A stretch of DNA of 64,000 nucleotides, from positions 80 through 64,079 of the forward strand of contig JAAZBV010000011.1 of NCBI GenBank assembly GCA_012513605.1, read 5' to 3'. The position numbers and the translations under genes are program-made. This DNA comes from Desulfatiglans sp. (GTDB lineage Bacteria; Desulfobacterota; DSM-4660; Desulfatiglandales; HGW-15). This document shows, one piece after another, positions 4,201-64,000 of the stretch; the first letter of the stretch is position 1, and every line of letters starts with the position of its first letter. The notes beneath the pieces were generated by a model that did not search any database, was not told the origin of the DNA, and was given only the letters and a program-made list of their open reading frames with translations.

Positions 4201-4216
4201 AATTATTTATTTTCCC

Positions 4217-4242
4217 ACTTTAAATTTCTATTAATTTAAAGT
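4217..4242. promoter_or_regulatory. Perfect 9-bp inverted repeat (actttaaat-N8-atttaaagt) in the 5' leader of the SNF2 gene
   Basis: Read directly. It lies 17 nt upstream of the SNF2 start codon, inside the 133-bp A+T-rich spacer separating it from the R-M genes. Function (operator or leader hairpin) not established. Confidence 0.25.
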
Positions 4243-4333
4243 TCCTGTATATTTAAGAATGTCCAAAGTTGGATTCTAAAAAGTTATATAGAAAAAATAA
4301 CCTTTAAATAAGCATATTTTATATATTCGGAAA

Positions 4334-40441: not shown

Positions 40442-41938
40442 ATGAATCAGATACTCATAGGAAAAGGCGAGCAGCAGGTACACCTTTTATCAAAGTATGG
40501 TAACCGCCACGGGCTTATTGCAGGGGCCACAGGCACGGGTAAGACTATCTCTCTTCTTCTTCTTGCCGAAGGGTTTTCACGCATGGGTGTGCCTGTATTT
40601 ATCTCTGATGTTAAAGGCGATGTAGCTGGCATTGCAGCGCCAGGCGCCATGAACGATAAGATACAGCAGAGGATCACCCAGATAGGCATTGAGGGGTATG
40701 TAAACGAACCATCCCCCTCTGTATTCTGGGATATTTATGGCAAATTGGGCCATCCTGTGCGTGTAACCATAAGTGAGATGGGGCCTGCCCTCTTAAGCCG
40801 GATACTTGAGCTGAACGATACCCAATCCGGAACCCTGGAGGTTGTCTTTAAGCTTGCAGATGAACAGGGGCTGCTTCTGCTTGACCTTAATGATTTCAGG
40901 GCCATCCTTGGCTTTATTTCCGAGAAGAGCAAGGAGGTGTCAGCGCAGTATGGCCTTGTGAGTAAACAGTCGATTGCAGCCATACAGCGTTCCCTGCTCG
41001 CCTTTGAGCGGGAAGGTGGCAACCAGATGTTCGGTGAGCCTGCACTTGATTTGACTGACATTATGCGGACTGATCTTTCGGGCAAAGGTATTATAAACAT
41101 ACTTGCCGCTGATCAGCTCATCCTGAAACCAAGGCTTTACTCCAGTTTTCTTTTGTGGCTTTTATCCGAGTTATTCGAGAATCTGCCAGAGGTGGGTGAT
41201 CTTGATAAACCCAGGCTTGTATTTTTCTTTGATGAGGCGCACCTACTGTTTGATGATGCACCTACAATTCTCCGCCAGCGTGTGGAACAGGTTGTAAGGC
41301 TTATCCGCTCAAAGGGTGTTGGCATCTACTTCTGTTCACAGCTCCCTGATGACCTGCCGGGTGAGATACTTGGCCAGATGGGTAACCGCATTCAGCATGC
41401 GCTTCGCGCCTTTACACCACGCGACCAGAAGGCAGTGAAAACCGCAGCAGAGACCTTTGCAGTTAATCCCAAGCTGGATGTAGCCTCAGTAATATCAACA
41501 CTTGGTGTGGGCGAGGCACTGGTATCTACCCTTCAGGAAAAAGGTGTACCCATGCCTGTAGAGAAAACAATCATATGTCCGCCACGATGCAGGATGGGGA
41601 CTATAACACCTGATGAGCGGGCTGCAATACGCATGAGAAGCCCTATCGGGATGAAATATGATACCCCCCTGGATCGTGAATCAGCCTATGAGATACTGAA
41701 TAGGCGGGCGCTTGAAAAGACCGAAAAATCAGAGATCAGAAAAAAAGAGGCCAAGTCGGAGAAACCGGCTGAGAAGGGGCAGGGGATGCTCGGCAATATC
41801 CTGTGGGGCACAGGCAGGCGGCAGGGCATGGTTGAAACAATGGCCAAACAGACCGTACGCACTGTAGGGAGCCAGCTAGGAAGGCAGATCGTGCGGGGCA
41901 TACTTGGAGGGATATTCGGGGGAAAAGTGGGCAGGTAA
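40442..41938 (+). CDS. DUF853/HerA-like P-loop ATPase (E. coli YjgR-type, 498 aa)
   Basis: Walker A 'IAGATGTGKT', Walker B 'LVFFFDEAHLL', basic Gly-rich C-terminal tail. AAGGAGG ribosome-binding site. Confidence 0.85.
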   Translation: MNQILIGKGEQQVHLLSKYGNRHGLIAGATGTGKTISLLLLAEGFSRMGVPVFISDVKGDVAGIAAPGAMNDKIQQRITQIGIEGYVNEPSPSVFWDIYGKLGHPVRVTISEMGPALLSRILELNDTQSGTLEVVFKLADEQGLLLLDLNDFRAILGFISEKSKEVSAQYGLVSKQSIAAIQRSLLAFEREGGNQMFGEPALDLTDIMRTDLSGKGIINILAADQLILKPRLYSSFLLWLLSELFENLPEVGDLDKPRLVFFFDEAHLLFDDAPTILRQRVEQVVRLIRSKGVGIYFCSQLPDDLPGEILGQMGNRIQHALRAFTPRDQKAVKTAAETFAVNPKLDVASVISTLGVGEALVSTLQEKGVPMPVEKTIICPPRCRMGTITPDERAAIRMRSPIGMKYDTPLDRESAYEILNRRALEKTEKSEIRKKEAKSEKPAEKGQGMLGNILWGTGRRQGMVETMAKQTVRTVGSQLGRQIVRGILGGIFGGKVGR

Positions 41939-42144
41939 CTTGATTCAGCAGAAAATATTTATAAATGGAGATATCCACCTCAGGCATCATTACCGCAAAA
42001 GCGAATTGGATGTGAGCGGACCGGTGATAGATTCATAAAGTCAGACTGACCGAAATCCATTTCATTATTATCGGCCTGGAATGTCAGTCTGAAAATTCTT
42101 TATGAACGCATAAAAATCAAATTTAACAGGCGAACATCCTTATT

Positions 42145-42660
42145 TTACGGAACCTTGTATTCCAGACCATGACAGCCACCGCAATAATTTTCCGATTTTT
42201 TATGCTGATGATGGCACTTGTTGCAGTCAGGAATCTTTCCGTCATGGGGAGAGTAATGGGGATTTATCGGGAGCCCTTTTGTTGCTTCAAGCAGGGCCTG
42301 AGGATCATTATGACATGTCTGGCACATACTTGAGTCCACAATCGTTTTGGGCTCAGTGTTTTCATGACAATCTTTGCATGTCAACCCGTTGAGCTGATGC
42401 TTATGGCTCAAAGGCATTTTCGTGCTCAGGCTTAGCTGCCCTTTAGAATGACATGAATCACAACCCTTTCCGGTCATTTTAGCTGTATCAACATGCCCCT
42501 GGGGTAAAACATCCTTTTCCTTATGGCAGACTTTACAATCACCAGGTCCAGGTTTAGCAGGAGCCTTTACAGCTACAGCGTTATCCAGCTCCTTTACGCC
42601 GCAGGAAAGAAAAAACAACAGACACAGGCCGGTAAGACATAATATGGTGTATTTGTGCAT
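42145..42660 (-). CDS. Exported hexahaem c-type cytochrome
   Basis: Six CxxCH motifs (CKVCH, CDSCH, CKDCH, CQTCH, CNKCH, CGGCH) in 171 aa. N-terminal signal, possibly a lipoprotein ('FFLSC'). Confidence 0.9.
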   Translation of the reverse strand: MHKYTILCLTGLCLLFFLSCGVKELDNAVAVKAPAKPGPGDCKVCHKEKDVLPQGHVDTAKMTGKGCDSCHSKGQLSLSTKMPLSHKHQLNGLTCKDCHENTEPKTIVDSSMCQTCHNDPQALLEATKGLPINPHYSPHDGKIPDCNKCHHQHKKSENYCGGCHGLEYKVP

Positions 42661-45012: not shown

Positions 45013-45825
45013 ATGAATTTCATGGAAAAGCTAAAAACAAGGTGGCGATCATCGAACTCGCTTCTATGTGTCGGTCTTGACCCTGATATAGAAAAGATAC
45101 CGGATCATATAAGAGGCATAAATAACCCCGTATTTGAATTCAATAAGGGGGTAATTGACTCCACCCATGACCTTGTCTGCGCCTATAAACCCCAGATAGC
45201 CTATTACTCTGCATTCGGTTTAGAGGATGAGCTTACACTCACCATTGAACATGTTCATAACTACTACCCTGACATACCTGTTATACTTGATGCAAAAAGG
45301 GGAGATATCGGCGCAACTGCAAAGATGTATGCAATAGAGGCATTTGACAGGTACAGGGCAGATGCGGTTACTGTTAACCCCTACATGGGAGGCGATACCC
45401 TTGCCCCATTTATCGACAGGAAGGATAAGGGGGTTATAATACTCTGCAGGACATCAAATCCGGGTGCGATTGATCTTCAGGACATTGAGTCTGGTAATGA
45501 AAAGATATACAGTATAATAGCAAAACGCGCATCAAAGGAATGGAACTATAACAATAATATAATGCTTGTTGTGGGCGCAACATATCCTAACGAACTCGCC
45601 GAGATAAGGGCGATTGCAGGAGACATACCTTTACTTGTGCCAGGGATCGGCGCACAGGGAGGAGATGTGGAAAAGGCTGTAAAAAATGGCATTACCAATG
45701 ATAAAACCGGAATGGTGATCAATTCATCACGCGGGATCATATTTGCCGGAAGCGGTAAAAACTATACAGATGCGGTACGTAAAGCGGCAATCACACTCCG
45801 TGATGAGATAAACCTATACAGATAA
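45013..45825 (+). CDS. pyrF: Orotidine-5'-phosphate decarboxylase (type 2)
   Basis: 'LCVGLDPD', 'ILDAKRGDIGATA', 'PGIGAQGG'. Confidence 0.92.
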   Translation: MNFMEKLKTRWRSSNSLLCVGLDPDIEKIPDHIRGINNPVFEFNKGVIDSTHDLVCAYKPQIAYYSAFGLEDELTLTIEHVHNYYPDIPVILDAKRGDIGATAKMYAIEAFDRYRADAVTVNPYMGGDTLAPFIDRKDKGVIILCRTSNPGAIDLQDIESGNEKIYSIIAKRASKEWNYNNNIMLVVGATYPNELAEIRAIAGDIPLLVPGIGAQGGDVEKAVKNGITNDKTGMVINSSRGIIFAGSGKNYTDAVRKAAITLRDEINLYR

Positions 45826-45859
45826 TCATATTAACAGATGGAACATTTTAGAAAATAAA

Positions 45860-46474
45860 TTGTCAAACCTGACGAATATAAAAACTGTCGATGCAGGCAG
45901 TGCTGAAAATGATAATGACCTTATAAATGCCTTTATTAAAGGGGATCATTCAGCCTTTGAAAAGTTGGTGCTCAAATATCAGGATCGTGTATTTAACCTG
46001 TGCTGTCGCCTGCTGGGAGATAGAGATGAGGCAGAAGACTCTGCCCAGGAGGTCTTTATTAAGGTATACAGGGCATTGAAAGGATTCAGGTTTAAATCCT
46101 CCTTTTATACCTGGCTCTATAGAATTGTTATCAACACCTGTAAAAACAGGATAAAATCTGTTGAATACAGGAGTATAAAATCAAGGGTCTCCATTGACAG
46201 CGACCAGGAAAACAGAGGCAATACAATCGTTGACATAGTTGACCAGAGGCCAATGCAGGATAAGACCCTTGAACAAAAGGAAAAGATGAAAAGGGTACAG
46301 GAGGCATTAAACAGCCTGCCGCCTGATCAAAAAACAGTTATTGTGCTCTGTGATATTGAGGGGCTCTCATATGATGAGATTGCAGGTATTACAAAAACCA
46401 GGCTGGGGACAGTAAAATCAAAGATTTCAAGGGCAAGGCTTGGCTTAAGAAACAAACTTGAGGGGATAATATAA
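45860..46474 (+). CDS. ECF sigma factor (sigmaE/sigma-24-like)
   Basis: 'AEDSAQEVFIKVY' and 'SYDEIAGITKTRLGTVKSKISRARLGL'. TTG start in the track. Confidence 0.9.
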   Translation: MSNLTNIKTVDAGSAENDNDLINAFIKGDHSAFEKLVLKYQDRVFNLCCRLLGDRDEAEDSAQEVFIKVYRALKGFRFKSSFYTWLYRIVINTCKNRIKSVEYRSIKSRVSIDSDQENRGNTIVDIVDQRPMQDKTLEQKEKMKRVQEALNSLPPDQKTVIVLCDIEGLSYDEIAGITKTRLGTVKSKISRARLGLRNKLEGII

Positions 46475-46475
46475 A

Positions 46476-47306
46476 ATGGAATGCGCAAAGATAAAATCTC
46501 TTCTATCAGAATATATGGATAAGGCATTTGATAATGATACTGTTAAAGAGGTCAAGGAGCACCTGCTTTCATGCAAGGATTGCAGCCGTGAATATTTCAA
46601 ACTTAAATCCATTACAGAAGAGTTGAGCTCCATGGAAAGGTACAGGGCTCCTTCAAATCTCCTCAATAAAGTCAACATTGCTATCCAGAAGAGGCCCTGG
46701 TATTTAAGGCTCCCTGACTATATTCCGGGTTCAGGAGGATTCAGGTTACCAATGGAGTATGTAACCCTTGCTGCAACGGCTGTGCTTGTTGTTTTTATCT
46801 TTACCAGCATCTACATTGACAATGAAAAGGATAATATGATTGCAGGTTCAGGCGGCAACAGACAATTTTTAGGGTCAAATACCGGCCCCAGCGCTGTATC
46901 AGTTGAACCTTTAGAGCTTCAATTTATCCCTGTAAGCCGAAAGGGGTCTGGTACGGTTTCAGCAGATAATCTGTTTTCAGTTTCATCAGGCAAGCCATCC
47001 CGCGACTTGCAGCTCCCTGATATTCTTAAAATGATGGATATGGACTCCCCTATCCTGAAAAATCAAAAAATTATATCAAGCCTTAATGAGTTGATCACGA
47101 AAGCAGGAGGGGATATAGTATTAAAGGAGCATAAGGGTGCAGCCGAAAACATAGATGCAATTACAGTAAGCATCCCTAAAAAAAGTTATGATTCTTTTAT
47201 ACAGGGGGCAGAAGAGATAGGGAGATTTCACCCCCCCGCCCCTGCATTGACTGGCAAGAGCGCTGATCAGGTTCTTGTGCGCATAAGATTTAATGTCAAT
47301 GAATAG
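46476..47306 (+). CDS. Anti-sigma factor (zf-HC2, single TM)
   Basis: 'EHLLSCKDC' (Hx3Cx2C), a central TM segment, and it sits immediately after the sigma-factor gene. Confidence 0.85.
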   Translation: MECAKIKSLLSEYMDKAFDNDTVKEVKEHLLSCKDCSREYFKLKSITEELSSMERYRAPSNLLNKVNIAIQKRPWYLRLPDYIPGSGGFRLPMEYVTLAATAVLVVFIFTSIYIDNEKDNMIAGSGGNRQFLGSNTGPSAVSVEPLELQFIPVSRKGSGTVSADNLFSVSSGKPSRDLQLPDILKMMDMDSPILKNQKIISSLNELITKAGGDIVLKEHKGAAENIDAITVSIPKKSYDSFIQGAEEIGRFHPPAPALTGKSADQVLVRIRFNVNE

Positions 47307-47390
47307 GATTATTTTAAGGAACATTTATATAAGTCTTTATGTCTAAGGCACCAGTATCAAGATGATATTAACCTAGAAAAGGAGCATCAA

Positions 47391-48836
47391 ATGAAAAATA
47401 GATATATAACACAATACATAAGTACATGCCTTAAAAGAAGTGTAATAGCCTCTGGCATTGCCATTCTGTTTACCATTTTTATTCTACCGGTCGGGACAAG
47501 TGTATCGGCTAAACCCGCTCCGGATAGCTTTTCCGGCCTGGTAAAGGAGGCCAGCCCATCTGTAGTCTATATCAGCACTAAGAAGACAATAAAGCAGAGG
47601 TTCCTCTCCCCATTCGGTCAGAACGACCCCTTAAGGGAGTTCTTTGAAAAATTCTATGGTGACCGTTTTCCAAGAGACAGGCCTCAAAGCGGACTTGGAA
47701 CAGGCTTTATCATAGATAAAGAGGGTTATATACTTACCAATAATCATGTTGTTGAAATGGCTGACGAGATCAAGGTGACCCTTGAAGACAAAAGTGAATT
47801 TGAGGCAAAGATAGTTGGCCGTGACCCTGAGACTGACATTGCACTTATCAGGATAGAGGGTGCAAAAAATTTGAAGGCATTGAAACTGGGTGACTCTGAC
47901 CTGATGGATGTAGGAGACTGGGTTGTAGCAATAGGAAACCCATACGGACTTGGAAACACGGTAACAGCAGGTATTGTAAGCGCAAAACACAGGAATAATG
48001 TGGGCATAGGCACATTTGATAATTTTTTACAGACAGATGCATCTATTAATCCCGGTAACAGCGGCGGCCCTTTGATTAATATTAATGGTGATGTTATAGG
48101 CATAAATTCAGCTATCTATTCACAGACAGGTGGAAGCGTTGGTATAGGTTTTGCCATCCCGATCAATATGGCAAAGGACCTGCTTCCCATGCTTAAAACA
48201 GGCAAGATAGTGAGAGGCTATCTTGGTGTAGGGGTGCAGGACATAACTCCTGATCTGAAGGAACAATTCAAACTTGAGAGCGAAAATGGCGCCCTTATTA
48301 CGCAGATATATCCTGACGGCCCGTCTGAAAAGGCAGGACTGAAAAGAGATGATGTTATAATATCCTTCATGGGCAAGGAGATCAAAGACTCAAAAAGGCT
48401 ACCCTATCTTGTCTCTGCAACCCCTGTCGGTACAGAGGCAGAGGTAGTTGTAATAAGAAAGGGAGAGAGAAAGACCTTCAGTGTAAAGCTGGGAGAGAGG
48501 CCGCCATCCGATGAGGAGGGAGTTGTAAAAGAGTCATCAAGCATGAACCTTGGGATGTCAATAGAGGCACTTACAGAAGAAAAGGCAAGAAGATATGGAA
48601 TAGCTGACAGCGAAGGTATACTTGTGCTGGATGTTGAATATAACTCACCTGCCGCAGAGGCGGGTTTAAGGCAGGGCGACATCATACTGGAGGTTGACCG
48701 CATAAAGATAAAGACTGAGAATGATTTTGAGGCAAAACTCAAGTCATACAGACCTGGAGACAAATTGCTGCTTCTTGTAAAACGCGGGAAATCACAAATA
48801 TATACAACTCTGAGGGTCTCGAAGGATAAACAATAA
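47391..48836 (+). CDS. Do/DegP/HtrA-family periplasmic serine protease with two PDZ domains
   Basis: 'TNNHVV', 'DIALIRI', 'GNSGGPL'. Signal or anchor sequence. Confidence 0.93.
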   Translation: MKNRYITQYISTCLKRSVIASGIAILFTIFILPVGTSVSAKPAPDSFSGLVKEASPSVVYISTKKTIKQRFLSPFGQNDPLREFFEKFYGDRFPRDRPQSGLGTGFIIDKEGYILTNNHVVEMADEIKVTLEDKSEFEAKIVGRDPETDIALIRIEGAKNLKALKLGDSDLMDVGDWVVAIGNPYGLGNTVTAGIVSAKHRNNVGIGTFDNFLQTDASINPGNSGGPLININGDVIGINSAIYSQTGGSVGIGFAIPINMAKDLLPMLKTGKIVRGYLGVGVQDITPDLKEQFKLESENGALITQIYPDGPSEKAGLKRDDVIISFMGKEIKDSKRLPYLVSATPVGTEAEVVVIRKGERKTFSVKLGERPPSDEEGVVKESSSMNLGMSIEALTEEKARRYGIADSEGILVLDVEYNSPAAEAGLRQGDIILEVDRIKIKTENDFEAKLKSYRPGDKLLLLVKRGKSQIYTTLRVSKDKQ

Positions 48837-54736: not shown

Positions 54737-54973
54737 ATGGATGTAATCAATGAATTTTTTGAATGTAAAGAGTGTGGCGGCAGGGATTTTCTCAGGATCT
54801 ATCACTTCTCACTCCGTTTTCACAGTGTCAACTTTTCAGATTCACTGGTATATGATCGCCTGGTCGATGAGGTCTACCAGTGTAACGACTGTAAAAAAAC
54901 ATACAGCATTGATCAGATTGATGAGGTACTGGAAGCCATAAAGGCAAGGCATAAAAACACGGATCTGGAATAG
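54737..54973 (+). CDS. Small zinc-ribbon protein (78 aa)
   Basis: 'CKECGG ... CNDCKK' pair of CxxC knuckles. Plausible ribosome-binding site. Confidence 0.55.
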   Translation: MDVINEFFECKECGGRDFLRIYHFSLRFHSVNFSDSLVYDRLVDEVYQCNDCKKTYSIDQIDEVLEAIKARHKNTDLE

Positions 54974-54974
54974 C

Positions 54975-55010
54975 AAAAAAAGCGGGGTTCTTACAAATGA
55001 ACCCCGCCAT
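54975..55010. terminator. Terminator hairpin at the end of the minus-strand signalling operon
   Basis: 'aaaaaaagcggggttc-ttacaaat-gaaccccgc', a 9-bp stem that gives a U-run on the minus-strand transcript. Confidence 0.75.
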
Positions 55011-55040: not shown

Positions 55041-55769
55041 TTATTTCTCACCGCTCTTATAATAGAATTGAAATTTATATTTTCCTATTTCTATATTATC
55101 AAACTCGTTCAGTTGAAGGCTCTCTTTAATGATCTTGCCATTTACCTTGAGCTTTCCTTCCATTGATGTAATTACATAGCCTGTCGGTCGTTTACTTATA
55201 GTCGCAGCGGTGGCCGGCATAAAAAAACCTGTAAGTTGTATTTCAGATGTTTCTGCCTTTCCGATCTTTGTGAGTTTTTTACTCAACTCGATTTCACCCA
55301 TTTCAGCATGGCCGATAAAACTGATCATTCCTGTCTTCTGGGCTGTTGCCGCAGCGACCTGAACACCCGGCTGTTTGGCAAGAAGCTCCTTCTGCTTTGC
55401 AGTGTCAAGCATCATTGTCTTATCCATGTCTATCTTGGTCTCAGGTGTGGCTATTTTAACGGCCTGGCCATCACCCACAAAAAGGATACGATGCTTGCCA
55501 ATAATGATATTATCTCCATGTGCAAGTTTATGGGATACTATCTTCTTGTCATTTACAAATGTGCCGTTGGTGCTCTGAAGATCAGTAAGGATATATTCCT
55601 TTCCTGCGACATCTATCCTTGCGTGGTAACCTGAAACAGCAAGGTTATCCACTGTAATTACATTGTCCTCATTACGACCTATTGTGATGCTCTCTTTCTT
55701 TAGAGGATATTCTTTAACTACCTGATTATTAAACATCAAGATAAGTCTGGCCATTATTATCTCCCTCAA
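55041..55769 (-). CDS. Double FHA-domain protein
   Basis: N-terminal canonical FHA 'ITIGRNEDN...SGYHARI...STNGTFVND'. The C-terminal half has a second, more divergent FHA-like unit: 'TKIGKAETSEIQL...KVNGKII...IEIGKYKF'. Confidence 0.9.
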   Translation of the reverse strand: MREIIMARLILMFNNQVVKEYPLKKESITIGRNEDNVITVDNLAVSGYHARIDVAGKEYILTDLQSTNGTFVNDKKIVSHKLAHGDNIIIGKHRILFVGDGQAVKIATPETKIDMDKTMMLDTAKQKELLAKQPGVQVAAATAQKTGMISFIGHAEMGEIELSKKLTKIGKAETSEIQLTGFFMPATAATISKRPTGYVITSMEGKLKVNGKIIKESLQLNEFDNIEIGKYKFQFYYKSGEK

Positions 55770-55818
55770 TATGAATTGTTATATATTATTCTTATTTTAA
55801 TATAAATAGCAATAACTA

Positions 55819-56688
55819 TTATTTAAACAGCATTATTTTTTTACCCGCCTTATGTACCACCACTGAAATATCAGAGAGTATATAGGAAATCCTGCTCATA
55901 AGACCACGCCTGGGCTTTGCCAGATCAGACAGGAAAACCGATACAATAGTTGTATTGTCATGGGCTCCCCTGTCAAGTACTGTACGTATAAAATTCCTGC
56001 ATAAATTCTCCGGGTCAATTGAGTCTTCTATCATCTCCCGGATTTCTTCATCATTCATCAGGTCTGTTAACCCGTCAGAACAGATTACAAAACGGTCATT
56101 ACCTGACGGGTCTATCTCGTAAATCTCCGGTTCAACACTTTCAGATGACCCCAGGTTCCTGGTAAGGATATGTTTCATGGATGAAAGTGAGGCATCTTCC
56201 TCGGTCATCATCCCCAGCGCAACCTGCTCTGCGACAATAGTGTGATCCTTTGAAAGCATTTCAATTTCACCATCCCTTAACATATATATACGGCTGTCAC
56301 CCACATTTGCAGCTATGATCATGGATGGGGTGACAAGGAGCACAACAACTGTGGTACCCATACCCTGATATTGCTTCTTTTCAAGGGCCATCTCATAAAC
56401 AACCCTGTTTGCAAGGCGTATCCCCCCAAGGATATAATTTCCCTCCCTTGAAAGCGAATCATCAGGTCCGCCGTAAATATCATCTGCGCTGGCATCCTCC
56501 TCCAGCCATCTTTTGTAACTTCTGTTTATTATATCTACAGAAATATGGCTTGCTATCTCTCCTGCCAGATGCCCTCCCATGCCATCAGCCACAATATAGA
56601 GGCCAAGAGAATCATCAACAGAAAAGGAATCCTCATTACCTTCTCTTTTAAGGCCTACATCGGTTATGCCTGATGATTTTATCAGCAA
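55819..56688 (-). CDS. PP2C-family Ser/Thr phosphatase
   Basis: 'GLKREGNEDSF', 'VADGMGGHLAGE', 'ICSDGLTD', 'GAHDNTT'. TTG start in the track, so the start is uncertain. Confidence 0.9.
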   Translation of the reverse strand: MLIKSSGITDVGLKREGNEDSFSVDDSLGLYIVADGMGGHLAGEIASHISVDIINRSYKRWLEEDASADDIYGGPDDSLSREGNYILGGIRLANRVVYEMALEKKQYQGMGTTVVVLLVTPSMIIAANVGDSRIYMLRDGEIEMLSKDHTIVAEQVALGMMTEEDASLSSMKHILTRNLGSSESVEPEIYEIDPSGNDRFVICSDGLTDLMNDEEIREMIEDSIDPENLCRNFIRTVLDRGAHDNTTIVSVFLSDLAKPRRGLMSRISYILSDISVVVHKAGKKIMLFK

Positions 56689-56799
56689 GTTTGAAAAACC
56701 CCGAAATCAATTATAAATACATTCAGGCCCTGAATTCTTTTATCCATACAAATAAACACAGGAAGGGCTTGTAATTCCGGCATACCATGGCAGACAGTT

Positions 56800-59313
56800 T
56801 TAAACCTGTTTTTCATCACCATTTACCTGCCCCTCCTTTTGCGTTTTCAGTTGATCCATCTTTTCGCCAAGCAATCTAAGTATGCGAGCCATCTGCCCGG
56901 CTGTCCTGAATCGTTTTGCAGGATTTTTTGCAAGCGCGCTGTCAAGTATCTGCTCGCATGCCTTAGGGATCCTGTTATTATATTCTCTGCATGATGTGTG
57001 CTGCACCTGGGTGATCTGATAAAGGAGACCGCTCAGGTTGTCACCATGAAAGGGTAATTCACCTGTGAGAAGCTGATAAAAAAGAACGCCAAGAGAGAAA
57101 ATGTCAGATTTCAGATCTATTTTCTGCCCCATAATCTGTTCAGGGGACATATAATTGGGTGTGCCCAGTATAACCCCTGTTTTGGTCTTTGATGATGATA
57201 TAGCCTTTGCTATCCCGAAGTCTGTAACCTTGACCTGCCCGTTCTTCAGAAGCATGACATTGGCCGGTTTGATGTCCCTGTGTATCACCCCATCCCTGTG
57301 GGCATAATCAAGGGCCTCTGCTATCTGTGCCACAATATTAAGCACAGTCCTGACAGGAAGCAGATTCCCCTTTTTTATAAATTTATCCAGGTCCTCCCCT
57401 TCCAGATATTCCATTGCCATGTAGGTAAGATCGCCGTCATCCCCGACATCATGTATTGTCACAATGGACTGATGGGATAATTTTCCGGCTATCTCCGCCT
57501 CCATGAAAAACCTTTCCTTTATCTCCTTGATTACATCCTCTTCAAATTCATCAGAGAACCGTATGGTTTTTATGGCCACAAGGCGGTTTATCTTAGGGTC
57601 CTGCGCCTTGTAAACAAGGCCCATTGATCCTTTTCCTATCTGGCCTATTATCTTGTACCTGCCGACCATGGTGCGTGCATTTACACTTGAATCACTGAGC
57701 ACGCTTGAGGGTTCTTTTATACCCCTGTAACTCCCCATGGTTGAGGCATAATCAGATGCCTTCAGCATTGGAATCCTCTCATCAAGGTCCCTGAAGCCCC
57801 CGCTCTTATTGATGTAAGTGTAGAGCTCAATTGCCTTTACAGGCATGTTCTTCTTTTCATATTCAAGCCCGAGATTGTAGATAAGATCCTTTGTCTCCTT
57901 ATCAAGGGGGAGTGACCTGAATTCTTCAAATGCCTCATCAAGTTCGCCCTGGCTCTGGAGATTAAGTCCCAGGATCCTGCTTGTCTCACAGGATCTTACA
58001 TTTACTGATTTGGAAGGGTCATATTTTACTGCAAGTAATAAAGAGAGCAGCACTGTCCCAAAAATCATATTGCCTGTCTTTACCCACACACCTGCAAATA
58101 AAAAGGATGCAAATACTGCCAATATCATAACCAGTATAATGGTAATAAATAATATTAGCCTTGTGGAATGCCCCTTTGATGAAGCAAGGCGGATATAGGC
58201 AAATGTGAACAAAACAAAAAAGAGTATCTCAACATAAACAAGGTATGAGGGCCTAGCTGCGGAACGGCCATTCATCATATCGAAAAACTGGTCAGCTATA
58301 AGGGCTGTACTCTTCAAAGAGAGGTCAGAGTTCTCAATACCTGAGCCAGCCAATTCAATTAAAAAAACCTTATCCTTTGTATCATGCCTCTTTTCCATGT
58401 TACCGGTAAATTTTTCATAGCCGACAGTACTGTAGCTGGTCGGCTCACCCCTGTAAGGGGTATATATCCTGCCATTAATAAGGGGAATACCCAGATCCCT
58501 TATCATTATCATTGATTCATCAGGCTTTACCTGCGCAGGTTTCAAGCCGTGATATGATATTGCCATCCTCAGGGCAATTGTCGGCACAAGTGACCCTTTA
58601 TACCCTGCATAAACAGGAAATGAGATATCATCCTGAACAGCCTTCCCATATTTACCTATAAACCCTGCCCCTGCCCTGCCAGCAATTTGCATGTGGTTAA
58701 AGGATGCAAGGGTCTCAACAGAGATAGAGTCAAGAAATGACCCATCCATCCCTGATGCATCAAGAAAATCAGGGTTTTTAATTGGGGTTGTGCCCGCGGG
58801 CATAACAGTCAAAGGTACGATTACAGGGCCTTTCAGGGCAGGTAAACCTGGTATTTGCCCCTCTTTTGCAAGCGCTCCTTCAAGCCTGTTAATGGATTCA
58901 AAAATAAAATCCCTGAACTCGGCAGGCTTTTTTTCATGAGGATACACTTTTACCTCACCAGCAAATGCCCTCACAGCCTCTATGGTTTGAACCGGCTCAT
59001 CTGTTTTTGATAGAGATACAAAGGCAATAACCTTTGCCCCCCCCTCTGAAAGGGAGTCTATCAGCTTGATACAGAGCTGACTGAAGGAATCTCCTTTATT
59101 GGCCTGTTTGTCAAAGCCTTTTGTATCAAGGCGGACAATGACCAGATCTTCACTTTTAAAAGAGCTGTTTCCACTTATTAACCCTGAACCTGCCCTGTAT
59201 AAGAAGCTGTCCACATGATCAATAAGGGGCCAGCTAAAAAAGGTGAGAATAACAAAAAGCAGCAGGATAAGTATGCCTGTAAGATAACCCGGCTTTGTTT
59301 TATTAATTGCCAT
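56800..59313 (-). CDS. CHASE2 sensor - 3 TM - TPR - Hanks-type Ser/Thr kinase (837 aa)
   Basis: N-terminal TM, an extracytoplasmic ~330-aa domain, then three TM segments (CHASE2 topology). The kinase has 'GKGSMGLVYKA', 'HRDIKPANVML', 'DFGIAK', 'GTPNYMSPE'. Confidence 0.88.
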   Translation of the reverse strand: MAINKTKPGYLTGILILLLFVILTFFSWPLIDHVDSFLYRAGSGLISGNSSFKSEDLVIVRLDTKGFDKQANKGDSFSQLCIKLIDSLSEGGAKVIAFVSLSKTDEPVQTIEAVRAFAGEVKVYPHEKKPAEFRDFIFESINRLEGALAKEGQIPGLPALKGPVIVPLTVMPAGTTPIKNPDFLDASGMDGSFLDSISVETLASFNHMQIAGRAGAGFIGKYGKAVQDDISFPVYAGYKGSLVPTIALRMAISYHGLKPAQVKPDESMIMIRDLGIPLINGRIYTPYRGEPTSYSTVGYEKFTGNMEKRHDTKDKVFLIELAGSGIENSDLSLKSTALIADQFFDMMNGRSAARPSYLVYVEILFFVLFTFAYIRLASSKGHSTRLILFITIILVMILAVFASFLFAGVWVKTGNMIFGTVLLSLLLAVKYDPSKSVNVRSCETSRILGLNLQSQGELDEAFEEFRSLPLDKETKDLIYNLGLEYEKKNMPVKAIELYTYINKSGGFRDLDERIPMLKASDYASTMGSYRGIKEPSSVLSDSSVNARTMVGRYKIIGQIGKGSMGLVYKAQDPKINRLVAIKTIRFSDEFEEDVIKEIKERFFMEAEIAGKLSHQSIVTIHDVGDDGDLTYMAMEYLEGEDLDKFIKKGNLLPVRTVLNIVAQIAEALDYAHRDGVIHRDIKPANVMLLKNGQVKVTDFGIAKAISSSKTKTGVILGTPNYMSPEQIMGQKIDLKSDIFSLGVLFYQLLTGELPFHGDNLSGLLYQITQVQHTSCREYNNRIPKACEQILDSALAKNPAKRFRTAGQMARILRLLGEKMDQLKTQKEGQVNGDEKQV

Positions 59314-59437
59314 ATCAAACTTAAATAGAGGTTACTATTCTTGAGTTAGCCTTATTAATTTCCAATTATTTAAAAGATGTATCAAAACAACAAGTTATTG
59401 TCAAAAAAAAACATTTTTATTAAGATCAGCAGAATCC

Positions 59438-60397
59438 CTAGATATTTAAACCTTCCCTTATGCAACCCTTTATAGTCCCCAGAAAGGTCTTCTTATAGGC
59501 CTTCTCACACCTGCTCAAATGGGGCAGAGCCTTACTCAGATCATATGCCAGCTCCCTGCATGACTGGTACCTCTCTTCAACATTTTTGGCTGTTGCCTTT
59601 TTTATAATAGGCTGAAAAATGGCCTGCACAGGCGGTGACTGCGTGGATAAAGGCGCAGGTTTTTCATTAATTACCTTATAGAGTGTGGTATAAGGATTTT
59701 CCCCTTCAAAGGCCTTTCTACCCTCGATAAGTTCATAAAGAACGCACCCCAGTGAAAAGACATCGCTTGCCTTGGTTGCAGCAAAACCTTTAAGCTGCTC
59801 AGGCGACATATAGCTTGGCGTTCCCCAGAACCCCATAGGCTGGGTGCCATCTATCATGAGTGAAAGCCCTAAATCGGTTATCTTTGGAATTCCCTGTTTG
59901 TTCAGAATAATGTTTGAGGGCTTTATATCCCTGTGAATGACGCTGTTTTCATGAGCAAAATGTATCCCCTTGCATATATCTATCATTACCTCGCTTACCC
60001 TTGTTAAGGGCAGTAAATTTTTTATATCACAGAAGACATCAAGTGTATCGCCTTCTATATATTCCATAATGATATAAGCAAATTCAGGGCCTGCGTTCGA
60101 ATCATAGATAAAAACAATATTGTCATGCATAAGTTTCCCAACAAGTCTCGCCTCTGAGACAAATCTGTCTACCCCTTTATTTGAAACCTTAACAGCTACA
60201 TATCTCTTTTCAACCTTATCCCATGCCTTATAAACGAGCCCTGTGGCCCCTCGCCCCAGTATCTTGTTAAATTTGTACCTGTCATCACCTGTAGGATTAA
60301 GGCATATATCATCCGAATTTTTCATGACCATCTTTTTAAAAAGATCAAATACCGTTCTATTATGTTCTTCAAAATCATTACCGTTTGAGAAGGTCAT
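59438..60397 (-). CDS. Soluble Hanks-type Ser/Thr protein kinase (319 aa)
   Basis: 'GRGATGLVYKA', 'HRDIKPSNIIL', 'DLGLS', 'GTPSYMSPE'. Confidence 0.92.
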   Translation of the reverse strand: MTFSNGNDFEEHNRTVFDLFKKMVMKNSDDICLNPTGDDRYKFNKILGRGATGLVYKAWDKVEKRYVAVKVSNKGVDRFVSEARLVGKLMHDNIVFIYDSNAGPEFAYIIMEYIEGDTLDVFCDIKNLLPLTRVSEVMIDICKGIHFAHENSVIHRDIKPSNIILNKQGIPKITDLGLSLMIDGTQPMGFWGTPSYMSPEQLKGFAATKASDVFSLGCVLYELIEGRKAFEGENPYTTLYKVINEKPAPLSTQSPPVQAIFQPIIKKATAKNVEERYQSCRELAYDLSKALPHLSRCEKAYKKTFLGTIKGCIREGLNI

Positions 60398-60486
60398 TTC
60401 AACTCCGGCATAAAGAATTTCTAATACAATTAATGTCTGTTTCGAATATGCAATTATTCATATATTTTAAACCTTACTGTGTCGAT

Positions 60487-62304
60487 CTATCTTTTTATCC
60501 TGAATATTAAAGTCGCATTTTTTAATTTTTGAAATTTTGCTGCCTTTGATTTTAAAGACTTCAGCAGTTTCACCAGCCCCTGATAATCCTGGAATCTGTT
60601 ATCCGGTTCTTTGGCCATCATTTTTTCAATAACCTTTCCAAGTGCTGTTGATATTGCAGGATTTTTCTTTCTTAAAGGTGTAAGCTCCTCATTCAGGTGT
60701 TTGAGAAGCACCTCTTCTGCTGATTCACCCTCAAATGGCGCAAACCCTGTAAAGGCATGATAAAAAGATGCGCCCAGCGAATATATATCACTCCTGTGAT
60801 CCATGGGAAGCCCCTGAATAGCTTCAGGTGATATGTAGAATGGAGAACCCACAATGCCCTCTTTATTTTTCTCACCCACATCAGCGGTTATTGCGACACC
60901 AAAATCGACCAGTTTTACAATATCCTGGCTGTTTATCATTATGTTCGCAGGTTTCAGATCCCTGTGAATTATATTTTTCTGACTTACCAGATCAAGCGCT
61001 TCACAGATTGTTATCAAATAATCTAGACCCTTTATTGAATAGAGTTTATCCCCTTTCCTGATCAACTCTGCAAGTGAAGCGCCTTCAATATACTCCATTG
61101 CAAAGTAGAGGATCTGATTCTCGTTGCCAATATGGAATATTGAAGCTATGTTCGGGTGATAAAGCTGAGAAATAAACCTCGCCTCTTTAATAAACATCTC
61201 CCTGAACTTTTCCTGAGCAGCAAGTTCAAAGGCTATTACTTTAAGCGCTACAGTCCTTTCCAGTGCAATATCCCAGCCTTTAAATACGCCCCCCATAGCG
61301 CCCGCGCCTATAAATGAAACAACCTTATAGTTATTCAGCTGCTTGCCAATAAGGCTCTGGTAAAACCTCTTTTCAAGAGATGCCCCTTTATTATTTTCCA
61401 CATTATTCTCTTCTTCTGAATCATCACTACCGCGGGTAATAAATAGTGTTCGCTCAACATTTTTTATAGTCTGGGGCGCTTCCTGAGTCTTTTGCGGTAT
61501 AACCGGCGGGGTTCCTTTCTGTAAATGGGACTTGATATACTTGAGGTAATCAATCCATTCGGCGCTTTTCTCCATCTCTACGCCTATCCCGGCATCTTCC
61601 GAAACATTAAGATTCTTAAAGGTAATGTGTTTTATAATGCCCTTAACAACCGATATCCCGGATGGCAATGAGATCCTTACATAGAGTTCAACCCCGGCCT
61701 TGCCAAGCATTGAGGTCTTGATAAACATCCCTTTGGCGCTGATATTCTTGATCTGACCAGGTATCCAGAGTATGCCATTCCTTGATATCTCTATCTTCAG
61801 GATGCGAAGCAGGGCCGCCCTTTTTGCCTCACGTTTCTCATCATCATTATCCGTTATTTTCACCATCTGTGTGGCGCTGTAGTCTATCTCCTGGTCAGAC
61901 TGAGGTGTACTTTCATTATTATCCTTCTCAGGCGGAGGGCATATCTCGCTAATGCGCGCAGCCATATCCACAGGCTCCATGGGATATACGATAAAATCTG
62001 TTGCCCCGTCCTGAAATGCCCTTTTTGCACTTCCCTGATCATTGAGTGGGACACAGAAAATAAATGGAATCTTATCCCTCAGAGGGTCATTCTTAAGAAA
62101 ACGCAGCAGGTCGTAACCGCTGACATCGCTTAATTTATTGTCACACAGAATAAGCTCGATAACATCAGACGACAGTGAAGATAGCACTCCCCGCATGTCC
62201 ATTGCTGTTGATACAGAATAGCCGTAATTGAAGAGAGAATCAGATACTTCCTTCAAAAATTTCTCATCTCTGTTTATAAAGAGTATTTTTTTTCTATTGT
62301 TCAT
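60487..62304 (-). CDS. Receiver (REC) - PilZ - Hanks Ser/Thr kinase fusion (605 aa)
   Basis: REC: 'KILFINRDE ... ELILCDNKL'. PilZ: 'REAKR' (RxxxR) followed about 25 aa later by 'NISAKG' (NxSxxG). Kinase: 'GAGAMGGVFKG', 'HRDLKPANIMI', 'DFGVA', 'GSPFYISPE'. Confidence 0.88.
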   Translation of the reverse strand: MNNRKKILFINRDEKFLKEVSDSLFNYGYSVSTAMDMRGVLSSLSSDVIELILCDNKLSDVSGYDLLRFLKNDPLRDKIPFIFCVPLNDQGSAKRAFQDGATDFIVYPMEPVDMAARISEICPPPEKDNNESTPQSDQEIDYSATQMVKITDNDDEKREAKRAALLRILKIEISRNGILWIPGQIKNISAKGMFIKTSMLGKAGVELYVRISLPSGISVVKGIIKHITFKNLNVSEDAGIGVEMEKSAEWIDYLKYIKSHLQKGTPPVIPQKTQEAPQTIKNVERTLFITRGSDDSEEENNVENNKGASLEKRFYQSLIGKQLNNYKVVSFIGAGAMGGVFKGWDIALERTVALKVIAFELAAQEKFREMFIKEARFISQLYHPNIASIFHIGNENQILYFAMEYIEGASLAELIRKGDKLYSIKGLDYLITICEALDLVSQKNIIHRDLKPANIMINSQDIVKLVDFGVAITADVGEKNKEGIVGSPFYISPEAIQGLPMDHRSDIYSLGASFYHAFTGFAPFEGESAEEVLLKHLNEELTPLRKKNPAISTALGKVIEKMMAKEPDNRFQDYQGLVKLLKSLKSKAAKFQKLKNATLIFRIKR

Positions 62305-62383
62305 CGCCGTATGGATTAAACCCTTAAAATGAACTCCGTGAGTATCAAATTTTTCTAATCAAGACATAAGGTCATCATCTGAT

Positions 62384-63244
62384 TCAGCTTCCATTAGCTT
62401 TCCCATTGGTGTCTGGTTTCAGGCATATCTGGACCGCGAAATATTGAGAACCTGCCCTGAAAATAAGCACCGCAATAGGCATCTTATCTGAGTGGCCCAG
62501 CTGGTGCCCGCTGCCTACTATTACTGATGGGAGTGATATCTCAAAGTGATAGGGCTGCCCGACAAAATCCTTTTTAGTAGAGCCTCCAATCATATTTACA
62601 ATCTCAGCCACACCATCATGGATAAATTCAGCATTTATCTTATCTTCATCTGTGCCCATCATTCTTGCTATTATGGTCTGGGCCAGAGGCCAGTAGAAGG
62701 TTATACCCAGGATACCTTCTGCCCTGCCGGTAAGGGCTATCAACCCAGAAACATCGCCAAATATCTTAAAATCATTATCAAAATATACCTCTTCAAAAGA
62801 CACATCCAGAGAAGCAACTGTTTTGAGCACCGTGCATGTATTTTTTACAAATGAATTGATATATTCTGTTTCTTCCTTTAGCGGCTGCCGGTTGGGAATA
62901 AGGTGACCACTTAATATCTGTCTTATCGCAGCAGGAGGATCCTGTAAAGATATCACCTCAGTGGCGCCGGCAGTAATAAATGATTCTATTGAGCCTTTAT
63001 TATCCATAACCCTGAAAACGATAATCGGGATGTTCCTGAAATGGCATGCATACCTTAATTTGCGTATCTGTTTTGACAGTTCAGGGTTTTCATCCCCTTC
63101 CTGTAATATGATCATCCTGTAGTCTTTGAGTTCCCTGATGTTTTTAAAGGAGAGGCTCTCCAGGGTTATGGTATCACCAAGAAGATCATTTAAAAAATTT
63201 ATGATCGGGGGACTGCAATCAATAGCAATTATTTTGTTTGGCAT
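62384..63244 (-). CDS. Degenerate receiver domain fused to a CheX-like (CheC-superfamily) phosphatase domain
   Basis: CheX-like: 'GDVSGLIALTGRAEGILGITF', 'DGVAEIVNMIGGSTKKDF', 'ISLPSVIVGSG'. The N-terminal REC-like fold has Gln where the phospho-acceptor Asp is expected ('RMIILQEGD'). Confidence 0.8.
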   Translation of the reverse strand: MPNKIIAIDCSPPIINFLNDLLGDTITLESLSFKNIRELKDYRMIILQEGDENPELSKQIRKLRYACHFRNIPIIVFRVMDNKGSIESFITAGATEVISLQDPPAAIRQILSGHLIPNRQPLKEETEYINSFVKNTCTVLKTVASLDVSFEEVYFDNDFKIFGDVSGLIALTGRAEGILGITFYWPLAQTIIARMMGTDEDKINAEFIHDGVAEIVNMIGGSTKKDFVGQPYHFEISLPSVIVGSGHQLGHSDKMPIAVLIFRAGSQYFAVQICLKPDTNGKANGS

Positions 63245-63330
63245 TTATTAATCTCCATCATTTCATATTCTGTCAAAATTCCTTGAATATGTGTTTTGAA
63301 AAGGCAAAACACATATAATCCTTTCAAAGA

Positions 63331-63693
63331 TCAGATAGAACTATTTATGAATTTAATAAGCTCTTCGTTAGTAAAAGGTTTAGTGAGATATCCTTTTGCG
63401 CCCGCCTTCTTTGCGATGCTAACCTTGTCATCTTCAGATTCTGTTGAGATCATCAATACCGGAATATCTTTATACTTTTCATTTTTTTTTAATAATTTCA
63501 AGCAGTCCAGCCCTGTCATGCCTGGCATATTCCAGTCCATGAAAATAGCCCCTATTTTACCATCATGGTTTTCAAGCTGTTCAAACACCTCCTGCCCGCT
63601 GCCGGCCTGGATTATCTCTGTACCCATTGGCCGCATGGCATTCTGTATTATGTTTCTCATAACTTTTGAATCGTCTGCTATAATTACTTTCAT
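63331..63693 (-). CDS. Single-domain CheY-like response regulator
   Basis: 'KVIIADDS', 'AIFMDWNMPGMTG', 'VLMISTE', 'GYLTKPF'. All canonical receiver residues are present. Confidence 0.93.
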   Translation of the reverse strand: MKVIIADDSKVMRNIIQNAMRPMGTEIIQAGSGQEVFEQLENHDGKIGAIFMDWNMPGMTGLDCLKLLKKNEKYKDIPVLMISTESEDDKVSIAKKAGAKGYLTKPFTNEELIKFINSSI

Positions 63694-63889
63694 ACTATAC
63701 CCTCACAATATGTAGTTTATTAGACCTGTGATTTCAGCATCTAAAACTGGAAAAAATATTTTGTAACTACCATATATCGACACATAGTAACAATTTCTTA
63801 AATATACAGGCTATTTTTCTTTACTTGACCTTATTTTTTTTAATTCCCAAAAAAAACATCAATCAGTGACTGGATTGAAAGAGGTGTAT

Positions 63890-64000
63890 CATGTGCCAGG
63901 GAGAAAGACAGGATAAAGCACAAAAAACAGAAAATGGGGTTACATTACATTATAGTATTCGGCAAAAACATCTTTTACACACTATGCGGAATCATTTTAA
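63890..64000 (+). CDS. Possible 5' end of a CDS running off the right edge
   Basis: ATG at 63890 with AGAGG 7 nt upstream, open to the window end (MCQGERQDKAQKTENGVTLHYSIRQKHLL...). No recognisable motif. Confidence 0.25.

Follow-up and report, generated by a model that had tools for sequence, protein, structure and literature searches.

Does a row of closely spaced genes that brings chemotaxis-type two-component proteins together with Ser/Thr kinases, a phosphatase and an FHA protein form one operon and one signalling system? The question is raised by a 64,000-nucleotide (nt) stretch of Desulfatiglans sp. DNA (assembly GCA_012513605.1, contig JAAZBV010000011.1, positions 80 to 64,079 of the forward strand), here called the window, in which seven such genes lie on the minus strand. 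An initial annotation of this DNA read them as a single seven-gene operon and a compact hub integrating three signalling currencies. We find instead a conserved core of three genes, encoding a CheY-like receiver, a CheX-family protein and a kinase with receiver-like and PilZ domains (the REC-PilZ-kinase, or first kinase; together Module A), and a triad of genes for a membrane kinase, a PP2C phosphatase and an FHA protein (Module B), with an accessory soluble kinase between them. The reading we favour, at a probability of about 0.55, is that the cluster is a lineage-specific juxtaposition in which Module A would be a chemosensory-type output branch and Module B an independent triad.

Synteny was examined in 51 genomic loci with 10-kb flanks, fetched via an alignment of the CheX-family protein, and these loci are the basis of the counts over about 50 loci given below. 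Their sources are members of the Desulfatiglandales (Desulfatiglans among them), Smithellaceae, Syntrophus with the cultured S. buswellii DM-2, Desulfatitalea and ORM2a, spanning two classes of Thermodesulfobacteriota (Desulfatiglandales, Desulfobacterales [Desulfatitalea] and Syntrophales); individual loci are cited by L numbers. We followed two routes, mapping the window domains onto every open reading frame (ORF) and clustering neighbouring genes without supervision. Domains were annotated with Pfam and NCBIfam profiles, and folds were assessed with an AlphaFold model and Foldseek. Residue conservation in CheY and the first kinase was counted over 50 orthologs, and that of the CheX motif over 21 sequences. 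Gene content, residue conservation, folds and synteny patterns were observed directly, and from them we infer every phosphotransfer and binding step and the promoter.

Across these loci the three core genes lie together in 48-50 of about 50 cases, and nothing else is broadly conserved around them. The median gaps within the core are 90 and 77 bp. In several lineages a mere 7-30 bp separate the core genes, and in some the gaps shrink to 7-10 bp, a spacing that fits co-transcription of the core. The full set of seven is confined to relatives with at least 92% identity. In Syntrophus the core is followed by the CHASE2-kinase, PP2C and FHA genes in tight packing (triad genes 3 bp apart), without the soluble kinase. 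The triad is also found without the core in several Desulfatiglandales-like contigs (L055-L058), where it is accompanied by the block that lies downstream of it in the window: an ORF of 78 amino acids (aa), an epimerase, UDP-glucose dehydrogenase and the histidyl- and aspartyl-tRNA synthetases (HisRS, AspRS), to which L055 adds DegP, an anti-sigma factor, an ECF sigma factor and OMP decarboxylase. On a 6.48-Mb contig from a related member of the Desulfatiglandales, the triad is at 4.32-4.34 Mb and the core with the soluble kinase at 4.42-4.44 Mb, about 97 kb apart. The protein families differ in size as well, with more than 120 clusters at 69% identity or more for the double-FHA family versus about 25 full-length clusters for the CheX-family protein. 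Because the core is syntenic by itself and the triad occurs elsewhere, the seven-gene cluster is, very probably, a juxtaposition of two modules, and the triad belongs to the neighbouring conserved chromosomal block. Conservation of the seven-gene neighbourhood in related genomes, which the initial annotation had proposed as a check, is thus confined to the core trio, and a lack of synteny in relatives is among the outcomes it had named as refuting its single-operon view.

The physical description of the cluster stands. The seven co-directional ORFs are at 55041-63693 with gaps of 49-124 bp and no overlaps, and a terminator, placed earlier at 54975-55010, is present as a stem at 54981-55008 followed by seven T residues, between the FHA gene and a convergent 78-aa ORF (54737-54973, +). 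Within the cluster, a promoter-like element lies in the inter-module junction (59314-59437) and ends 64 nt upstream of the membrane-kinase ATG. The pattern matches nowhere else in the window, where 0 matches would be expected by chance. It is at the same position in every locus of the window clade (L001, L002, L004, L005, L007) and is found again in L056 and L057, two loci whose triad lacks an upstream core. The sequence pattern suggests that the triad keeps its own sigma-70-type promoter, and separate transcription of the triad is likely. A single seven-gene operon is therefore at odds with three results: the restriction of the full set to close relatives, the distance of about 97 kb in one relative, and this internal element. 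Generic scans over the region were less informative, since predicted promoters (29 versus 27.6 expected) and terminators (10 versus 6.9 expected) were about as frequent as in shuffled sequence, the one strong terminator at 54981-55008 excepted.

Table. Features of the seven-gene cluster, in the order of transcription (coordinates of the window)
Feature	Coordinates	Strand	Length	Content and profile matches
CheY-like single-domain receiver, canonical (Module A, gene 1)	63331..63693	-	120 aa	Pfam Response_reg E 2e-26
CheX-family protein (Module A, gene 2)	62384..63244	-	286 aa	Aspartate-less pseudo-receiver (~nt 62909-63244) fused to CheX phosphatase domain (~nt 62420-62878); CheX Pfam E 8e-18
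REC-PilZ-kinase, first kinase (Module A, gene 3)	60487..62304	-	605 aa	Pseudo-receiver (~nt 61942-62289), PilZ (~nt 61519-61839), Hanks-type Ser/Thr kinase (~nt 60517-61329); Response_reg and Pkinase
Accessory soluble Ser/Thr kinase, lineage-specific	59438..60397	-	319 aa	Kinase domain only; Pkinase E 2.5e-49
Promoter-like element, Module B	59377..59404	-		TTGACA, 17-nt spacer with extended TG, TACATC (TTGACA-N14-TGATACAT)
Membrane Ser/Thr kinase (Module B, gene 1)	56800..59313	-	837 aa	Pkinase E 7e-61
PP2C-type Ser/Thr phosphatase (Module B, gene 2)	55819..56688	-	289 aa	PP2C (PF00481) E 6e-20, 72.4 bits versus cut-off 20.3
Double-FHA protein (Module B, gene 3)	55041..55754 (ORF to 55769)	-	237 aa	Canonical FHA (~nt 55497-55688) and degenerate FHA-like domain (~nt 55059-55304); FHA E 1e-22
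Intrinsic terminator closing the cluster	54971..55008	-		10-bp stem (7 G-C pairs) at 54981-55008, 8-nt loop, then T7

The first core gene encodes a CheY whose best NCBIfam match is the CheY model, although at 76 bits it stays below the equivalog cut-off of 189. Residues D7, D8, D53, S83 and K105 and the DWNMP signature are invariant in the 50 orthologs, Y102 is at the position of E. coli Y106, and the gene adjoins that of the CheX-family protein in 49 of 50 loci. Because the catalytic quintet and the DWNMP signature are invariant, the protein is predicted to be competent, and this stand-alone CheY reads as the sole canonical receiver and Asp acceptor in the cluster.

The CheX-family protein was modelled with a predicted local distance difference test score (pLDDT) of 80.8. 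In Foldseek comparisons its C-terminal half matched CheX structures with template modelling (TM) scores of 0.80-0.85 (3hm4, 6vpw, 1xko), and 3hzh chain B, from the Borrelia burgdorferi CheX-CheY-BeF3 complex, scored 0.81 against the CheX domain. In structure superposition this domain is 31-34% identical to the CheX proteins of Desulfovibrio, Shewanella and Vibrio. The catalytic motif D210-x3-E214-x2-N217-x21-P239 is invariant in the 21 sequences, and the segment aligns with its counterpart in CheX proteins of solved structure; the spacer from N to P has 21 residues versus x22 in the class motif D/S-x3-E-x2-N-x22-P. Because of the fold match (0.85) and the invariant motif we regard the domain as competent and predict that it is a phosphatase of phosphorylated CheY (CheY~P). 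The N-terminal half (residues 1-120) has no Pfam match even at E 10 and resembles receivers in fold (KdpE 0.73, MtrA 0.68). It has IDCS in place of the paired Asp residues, E, Q or W at the acceptor position, and no Lys, and is an aspartate-less pseudo-receiver as these are defined in PMC12632262.

The receiver of the first kinase was scored by Pfam as Response_reg at 46.8 bits (cut-off 30.2; E 4e-12). Despite this above-cut-off match, its sequence places it with the pseudo-receivers by the same definition: N11-R12 invariantly replaces the Asp pair, V85 replaces T/S and Y107 replaces K (Y or D in orthologs), so that four of the five catalytic residues are gone, while D55 is retained in 47 of 50 orthologs. 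As the N-terminal domains of both the second and the third core protein are pseudo-receivers, the cluster would hold one target for Asp phosphorylation, CheY, and not the three counted earlier. The kinase domain (Pkinase E 1e-48) has all of the GxGxxG, VAxK, HRDxKxxN, DFG and SPE motifs, conserved in 49-50 of 50 orthologs.

Between receiver and kinase lies a region that we assign to PilZ (PF07238; E 5e-4 in the window protein) from Pfam matches, motifs and model topology. Of 20 orthologous regions, 11 matched PilZ and no other family, with a best E of 2e-6. The motif R158-x3-R162 is well kept (R158 in 45 and R162 in 44 of 50 orthologs), as are N187 and G192 of the motif N187-x-S189-x2-G192 (46 of 50 each); S189 is found in 31. 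The model of this region has strands at 170-174, 181-188, 192-197, 206-213, 216-229 and 238-244 and a helix at 248-262 (pLDDT about 72-76), and the canonical PilZ topology is a six-stranded beta-barrel followed by a C-terminal helix (10.1101/814665).

The N-terminal module of this kinase appears to be a rare, small and separate family. A search with its 320 N-terminal residues returned just 9 homologs, mostly truncated, and in an exhaustive search among 1.8 billion representatives 12 clusters (50% identity) reached E 1e-30, matches below about E 1e-22 being mostly generic receivers. In a sister subfamily of about 670-713 aa (P0132, P0136-P0141; alignment A3 columns 200-470) the receiver is followed by two tandem PilZ-like barrels and the kinase, and RxxxR is not evident in the alignment before either barrel. 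The soluble kinase that follows the first kinase in the window has DLG in place of DFG. It was counted in just 10 loci, each of them a relative of the window save L015, where clustering may have caught a fragment of a frameshifted first kinase.

Domain annotation of the cluster revealed no histidine kinase, CheA, methyl-accepting chemotaxis protein (MCP) or GGDEF/EAL gene, and the initial annotation was correct that neither a histidine kinase nor an effector is encoded there. Nor was any histidine kinase, CheA, MCP, flagellar, pilus or GGDEF/EAL gene found among the 30 other large window ORFs annotated, a scan that did not take in five ORFs at 30.1-35.0 kb and one at 36969-37544. A lead to the missing kinase comes from the complete genome of ORM2a (L040, CP113000; 7708-18984) and its relatives L015 and L020, in which the core is embedded in one co-directional che operon of the order Cache-MCP, CheY, CheX-family protein, REC-PilZ-kinase, CheA, CheW, CheR, single-domain CheX, CheB, CheD. 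The CheA gene (Hpt, dimerisation, HATPase and CheW domains) begins 69 bp beyond the kinase gene, and the operon encodes no single-domain CheY other than that of the core. From this embedding, which is a lead from one lineage, CheA would be the most likely phosphodonor of the core CheY, and we put the chances that the core is a CheA-fed branch at even. Chemoreceptor adjacency was considered as a general feature and discarded, an MCP being near the core in L010 and L040 only. L047 has an orphan CheW and a ParA-like ATPase near the core but no che cluster, and no motor or pilus genes were seen near the core in any locus examined.

Some further features of the ORM2a lineage were observed. Its che operon holds two CheX-type phosphatases, and L015 has two copies of CheW and a REC-PilZ-kinase seemingly split by a frameshift into 3 ORFs. 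Upstream of the che operon of L040, an opposite-strand gene (4248-6272, -) encodes a protein of 674 aa that combines MshEN, HD-GYP-like (HD_5), receiver and DUF4388 domains, possibly an enzyme that binds and degrades cyclic di-GMP (c-di-GMP) near the PilZ-kinase; a receiver-similar protein occupies the corresponding place in L015.

Module B is an ordinary transmembrane Ser/Thr writer/eraser/reader triad. The membrane kinase has all Hanks motifs and consists of a first transmembrane segment, a divergent CHASE2-like extracytoplasmic domain (~nt 58243-59220, about 325 aa), three transmembrane segments (~nt 58027-58242), a TPR-like linker and the kinase domain (~nt 56905-57657). Hydropathy places the membrane segments at residues 13-31, 358-376, 386-404 and 411-429, and this 1+3 topology fits CHASE2. 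In the window protein CHASE2 (PF05226) scores 19.9 bits versus a cut-off of 26.3, and TPR_1, at 22.4 bits, is also under its cut-off. The Syntrophus ortholog (39% identity over 599 aa) matches CHASE2 at E 1e-52, and the orthologs in L056 and L057 are annotated as CHASE2; BLAST homology to the Syntrophus protein begins at residue 231, the first 230 residues of the window protein having diverged. The PP2C protein has the metal-binding Asp motifs DGMGG35, GDSR130, SDGL204 and DN244 and scores 217.7 bits against the NCBIfam Stp1/IreP model, just under the equivalog cut-off of 230. The FHA gene probably starts at the ATG at 55754, judging from a GAGGGAG Shine-Dalgarno sequence and the ortholog alignment. 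Its product had been described as a phosphothreonine (pThr) reader with two FHA domains, and this holds for the N-terminal domain, in which the pThr-binding GR, SxxH and NG motifs are all present. The C-terminal FHA-like domain (Yop-YscD_cpl E 9e-5, FHA E 0.03) has GK for GR and PxxA for SxxH and retains NG, so that the pThr-binding Arg, Ser and His are gone. Most of the earlier domain calls are sound; those in need of revision are this second FHA domain, the receiver of the first kinase, and CHASE2 and TPR, which are sub-threshold in the window protein.

Clusters of FHA, PP2C and PknB-type kinase genes are well known, as in mycobacterial fhaA-fhaB-pstP...pknA-pknB and in Stk1/Stp1. Module B resembles them in combining a transmembrane Hanks kinase, PP2C and an FHA protein, and its best NCBIfam matches are the PknB, Stp1 and FhaB models, all under the equivalog cut-offs. 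It differs in that the sensor is CHASE2-like with 1+3 transmembrane segments rather than PASTA, in the second, degenerate FHA-like domain, and in having no cell-division genes adjacent in the window.

The surroundings of the triad in other genomes were also recorded. In the window, 45013-48836 (+) encodes OMP decarboxylase, an ECF sigma factor, a zf-HC2 anti-sigma factor and a DegP-like protease with two PDZ domains; these genes lie beside AspRS in L055 in the same relative arrangement, and the whole stretch at 45-56 kb of the window is therefore a conserved syntenic block. In the metagenome-assembled genome of L019 (2730-7316) the core is immediately preceded, in the same orientation, by the block of UDP-glucose dehydrogenase, HisRS and AspRS, with the triad absent, and the core and the housekeeping block are therefore neighbours in more than one arrangement. 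The 78-aa ORF has two CxxC pairs and the look of a zinc ribbon without a Pfam match, and is kept at 70-76% identity beside the FHA gene in every relative examined, whether the core is present or not. In S. buswellii (L029, 17107-18864) an L,D-transpeptidase gene (Scaffold, PG_binding_1, YkuD) follows 73 bp after the FHA gene on the same strand, which hints at a cell-wall connection of the triad in Syntrophus. About 1.1 kb before its CheY gene, L029 also has a further gene for a stand-alone receiver.

How might the core work? We propose that an unlinked CheA-type histidine kinase would phosphorylate the stand-alone CheY and that the CheX domain of the second protein would reset CheY~P. The third protein, the Hanks kinase, would be the effector and turn the signal into Ser/Thr phosphorylation. 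Its activity would be gated by c-di-GMP via the PilZ domain and probably also by CheY~P, or by the CheX protein through its pseudo-receiver, docking on the non-phosphorylatable pseudo-receiver of the kinase. In this lineage the kinase substrates may include components of the adjacent triad, where FHA would read pThr and PP2C erase it, and the core and the triad, adjacent here and in Syntrophus, may share substrates. Whether the kinase is output rather than input is in our judgement a toss-up. With the odds somewhat against it, we tentatively suggest that the trio is a new chemosensory output class, in which CheA-driven CheY~P, timing by a tethered CheX and c-di-GMP would be integrated by a Ser/Thr kinase through pseudo-receiver docking and not phosphotransfer, converting His-Asp and cyclic-dinucleotide signals into Ser/Thr phosphorylation in syntrophic and aromatic-degrading Thermodesulfobacteriota.

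Parts of this scheme have counterparts in known systems. As in the CheY/CheX pairs of Thermotoga maritima, Borrelia burgdorferi (CheX-CheY3) and Vibrio cholerae (CheX-CheY-3), a catalytically complete CheY is adjacent to a CheX fold (TM score 0.85) with an intact motif. Unlike those pairs, the window CheX bears a conserved N-terminal aspartate-less pseudo-receiver, and the window pair is tied in most genomes to a Ser/Thr kinase gene, not to CheA/CheW. The closest solved relatives of the window CheX are the Vibrio/Shewanella/Desulfovibrio group, whose V. cholerae member has been shown experimentally to be a CheY-3 phosphatase and is controlled by the PilZ protein PlzC, the regulation of motility not requiring c-di-GMP binding (PMC12799141). 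As PlzC is functionally coupled to its CheX, the window PilZ may be coupled to a CheX-type phosphatase of the same structural subgroup (6VPW-like), with the difference that the window PilZ is fused to a kinase and linked to CheX genetically. In Myxococcus xanthus, Pkn1 (MXAN_1467) carries a PilZ domain beside its Ser/Thr kinase domain (Galperin & Chou, bioRxiv 10.1101/814665). Like Pkn1, the window protein fuses a Hanks kinase to PilZ with a C-terminal helix, and it adds an N-terminal pseudo-receiver and a conserved CheY/CheX context. Caulobacter ShkA is a histidine kinase activated by c-di-GMP through a pseudo-receiver (PMC7010744). Both kinases contain a pseudo-receiver and would be under c-di-GMP control (predicted here), but in ShkA the pseudo-receiver itself binds c-di-GMP, whereas the window Hanks kinase has the binding motifs in a separate PilZ domain.

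In the Wsp system of Pseudomonas, a chemosensory pathway with an alternative cellular function, the CheA-like WspE signals to the REC-GGDEF protein WspR. The ORM2a operon is similar in that MCP, CheA, CheW, CheR, CheB and CheD are encoded together with a putative non-motor output enzyme that has a receiver-like domain. The output would differ, being a Hanks-type kinase that reads c-di-GMP and not a cyclase that makes it, and because the window kinase has a pseudo-receiver the signal would come by docking rather than phosphotransfer.

Several points weigh against the reading of an output branch beside an independent triad. The second and third kinase genes have no terminator between them, and read-through across all seven genes is possible. 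Adjacency of core and triad recurs in Syntrophus in the same order, and an ancestral six-gene unit fits this as well as convergence does; a functional link between core and triad is possible, and would be optional, not constitutive. The PilZ match in the window protein (20.5-20.8 bits) falls under the Pfam cut-off of 22.5, Asn takes the place of S189 in the second PilZ motif in 14 of 50 orthologs, and a sequence profile of the PilZ-like region run against PDB sequences found no solved PilZ, only chance matches with E above 0.1. The che-operon embedding is seen in one lineage, in 3 closely related loci out of 38 with at least 3 kb downstream of the kinase, and may be secondary rather than ancestral. 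Finally, for phosphotransfer, c-di-GMP binding and protein-protein contacts alike, the scheme is built on inference.

These points bear unequally on the alternatives. That the seven genes are after all one operon and one integrated hub, whose three kinases, PP2C and FHA protein act on each other and on the receivers, would suit the co-directional genes, the short gaps, the single strong terminator at the end and the recurrence of the core-triad order in two lineages as distant as the window clade and Syntrophus. We nevertheless consider it unlikely, given that the core stands alone in most lineages, that about 97 kb separate triad and core in a close relative, where the triad has the downstream context known from the window, that a conserved promoter-like element precedes the triad, and that the double-FHA family far exceeds the core families in size. 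The direction of signalling could also be reversed, with the PilZ-kinase as an input that responds to c-di-GMP and places Ser/Thr phosphates on CheY or the CheX-family protein, so retuning a chemotaxis or motility pathway whose real output is CheY binding to a motor or another target. Hanks kinases are well known to cross-phosphorylate response regulators, which counts for this idea, as do the strongly CheY-like character of the receiver (DWNMP, Y102), its place as the sole CheY of the ORM2a che operon, and V. cholerae PlzC, from which it is clear that c-di-GMP proteins can act on CheX. But the idea leaves the conserved pseudo-receiver of the kinase, typically a regulatory or docking input domain, unexplained, and no motor or pilus genes lie beside the core in any locus; we judge it distinctly unlikely.

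Improbable to a similar degree is that the core is an orphan two-component fragment that has nothing to do with chemosensory arrays. The phosphodonor of CheY would then be acetyl phosphate or an ordinary orphan histidine kinase, and the ORM2a operon would owe its layout to a secondary insertion. The absence of a nearby CheA from 35 of the 38 loci with enough flank, and the rarity of an MCP (2 loci) or an orphan CheW (1 locus) near the core, are what it would predict. It has to account, however, for a dedicated phosphatase of the CheX type, which is typical of CheA/CheY pathways, and for an insertion landing precisely between the MCP and CheA of an otherwise CheY-less operon. The chance that the kinase genes are an anti-phage defence locus is close to nil. 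The PADLOC models PD-T4-6 and mad6 match all three kinases (E 1e-60 to 1e-94) and a restriction-modification (RM) cluster is present elsewhere in the window, but the PADLOC matches span the generic kinase domain only, CheY, the CheX-family protein and the FHA protein match no defence model, the RM genes are about 50 kb away, and the core is stably syntenic over two classes, unlike mobile defence islands. We rejected the defence reading because the similarity is that of a generic kinase domain.

All of the domains and their pairwise combinations are already known: CheY with CheX, PilZ-kinase, PilZ with REC or CheC, and kinase/PP2C/FHA clusters; fusions of PilZ to REC or CheC domains are listed in the original PilZ description. 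In the literature covered, subscription-only papers being outside its scope, neither the conserved trio nor a chemosensory operon with a Hanks kinase in it turned up, and the CHASE2 + FHA + PP2C and PilZ + kinase + CheX arrangements were likewise not found; the core trio is apparently undescribed. It would unite Asp phosphorylation, c-di-GMP and Ser/Thr phosphorylation in one small unit that is stable across two classes of anaerobes hard to study genetically. The compact hub of three currencies proposed for the seven genes thus overstates the unity of the locus but may be retained for the core alone, and this smaller unit merits experimental follow-up. If the che context of ORM2a reflects general wiring, this would be the first chemosensory pathway with a Hanks-kinase output, and, if true, the docking scheme would give a clear example of pseudo-receivers serving as docking modules. 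The switching of such domains on and off is an open question (PMC12632262). Since the cultured S. buswellii DM-2 has the core beside the triad, the idea is directly testable. For annotation, the locus illustrates that a tidy row of co-directional genes can have arisen when independent modules recently came to lie side by side.

The region upstream of the core (63694-64000) is non-coding, and identical metagenome contigs have a CobA/CobO/BtuR fragment as the next gene upstream, about 345 bp away. A non-coding block at 63750-63830 (minus strand), …ATATTTAAGAAATT…TGTGTCGATATATGGTAGTTACA…, lies about 60-100 nt before the CheY start and is conserved in relatives whose protein identity is as low as about 76%. 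The core probably has its promoter or operator here. A sigma-54 promoter was considered here and rejected: TGGCAC is present about 190 nt before the CheY start, but the -12 element is mismatched.

Elsewhere in the window, 40442-42660 encodes a HerA-like helicase (HerA_C, 718 bits) on the plus strand and a multihaem cytochrome c3/c7 on the minus strand, unrelated to the signalling cluster. The RM cluster, at 1060-6777 (-), encodes a 1046-aa SNF2/helicase protein, a restriction endonuclease of the BsuBI/PstI type and an Eco57I-like N6 methylase. It is part of a region of low GC content (0.37-0.40 over 1-17 kb versus 0.45-0.48 over 18-33 kb) together with ORF6N genes and genes having only domains of unknown function, and this region may be a genomic island.

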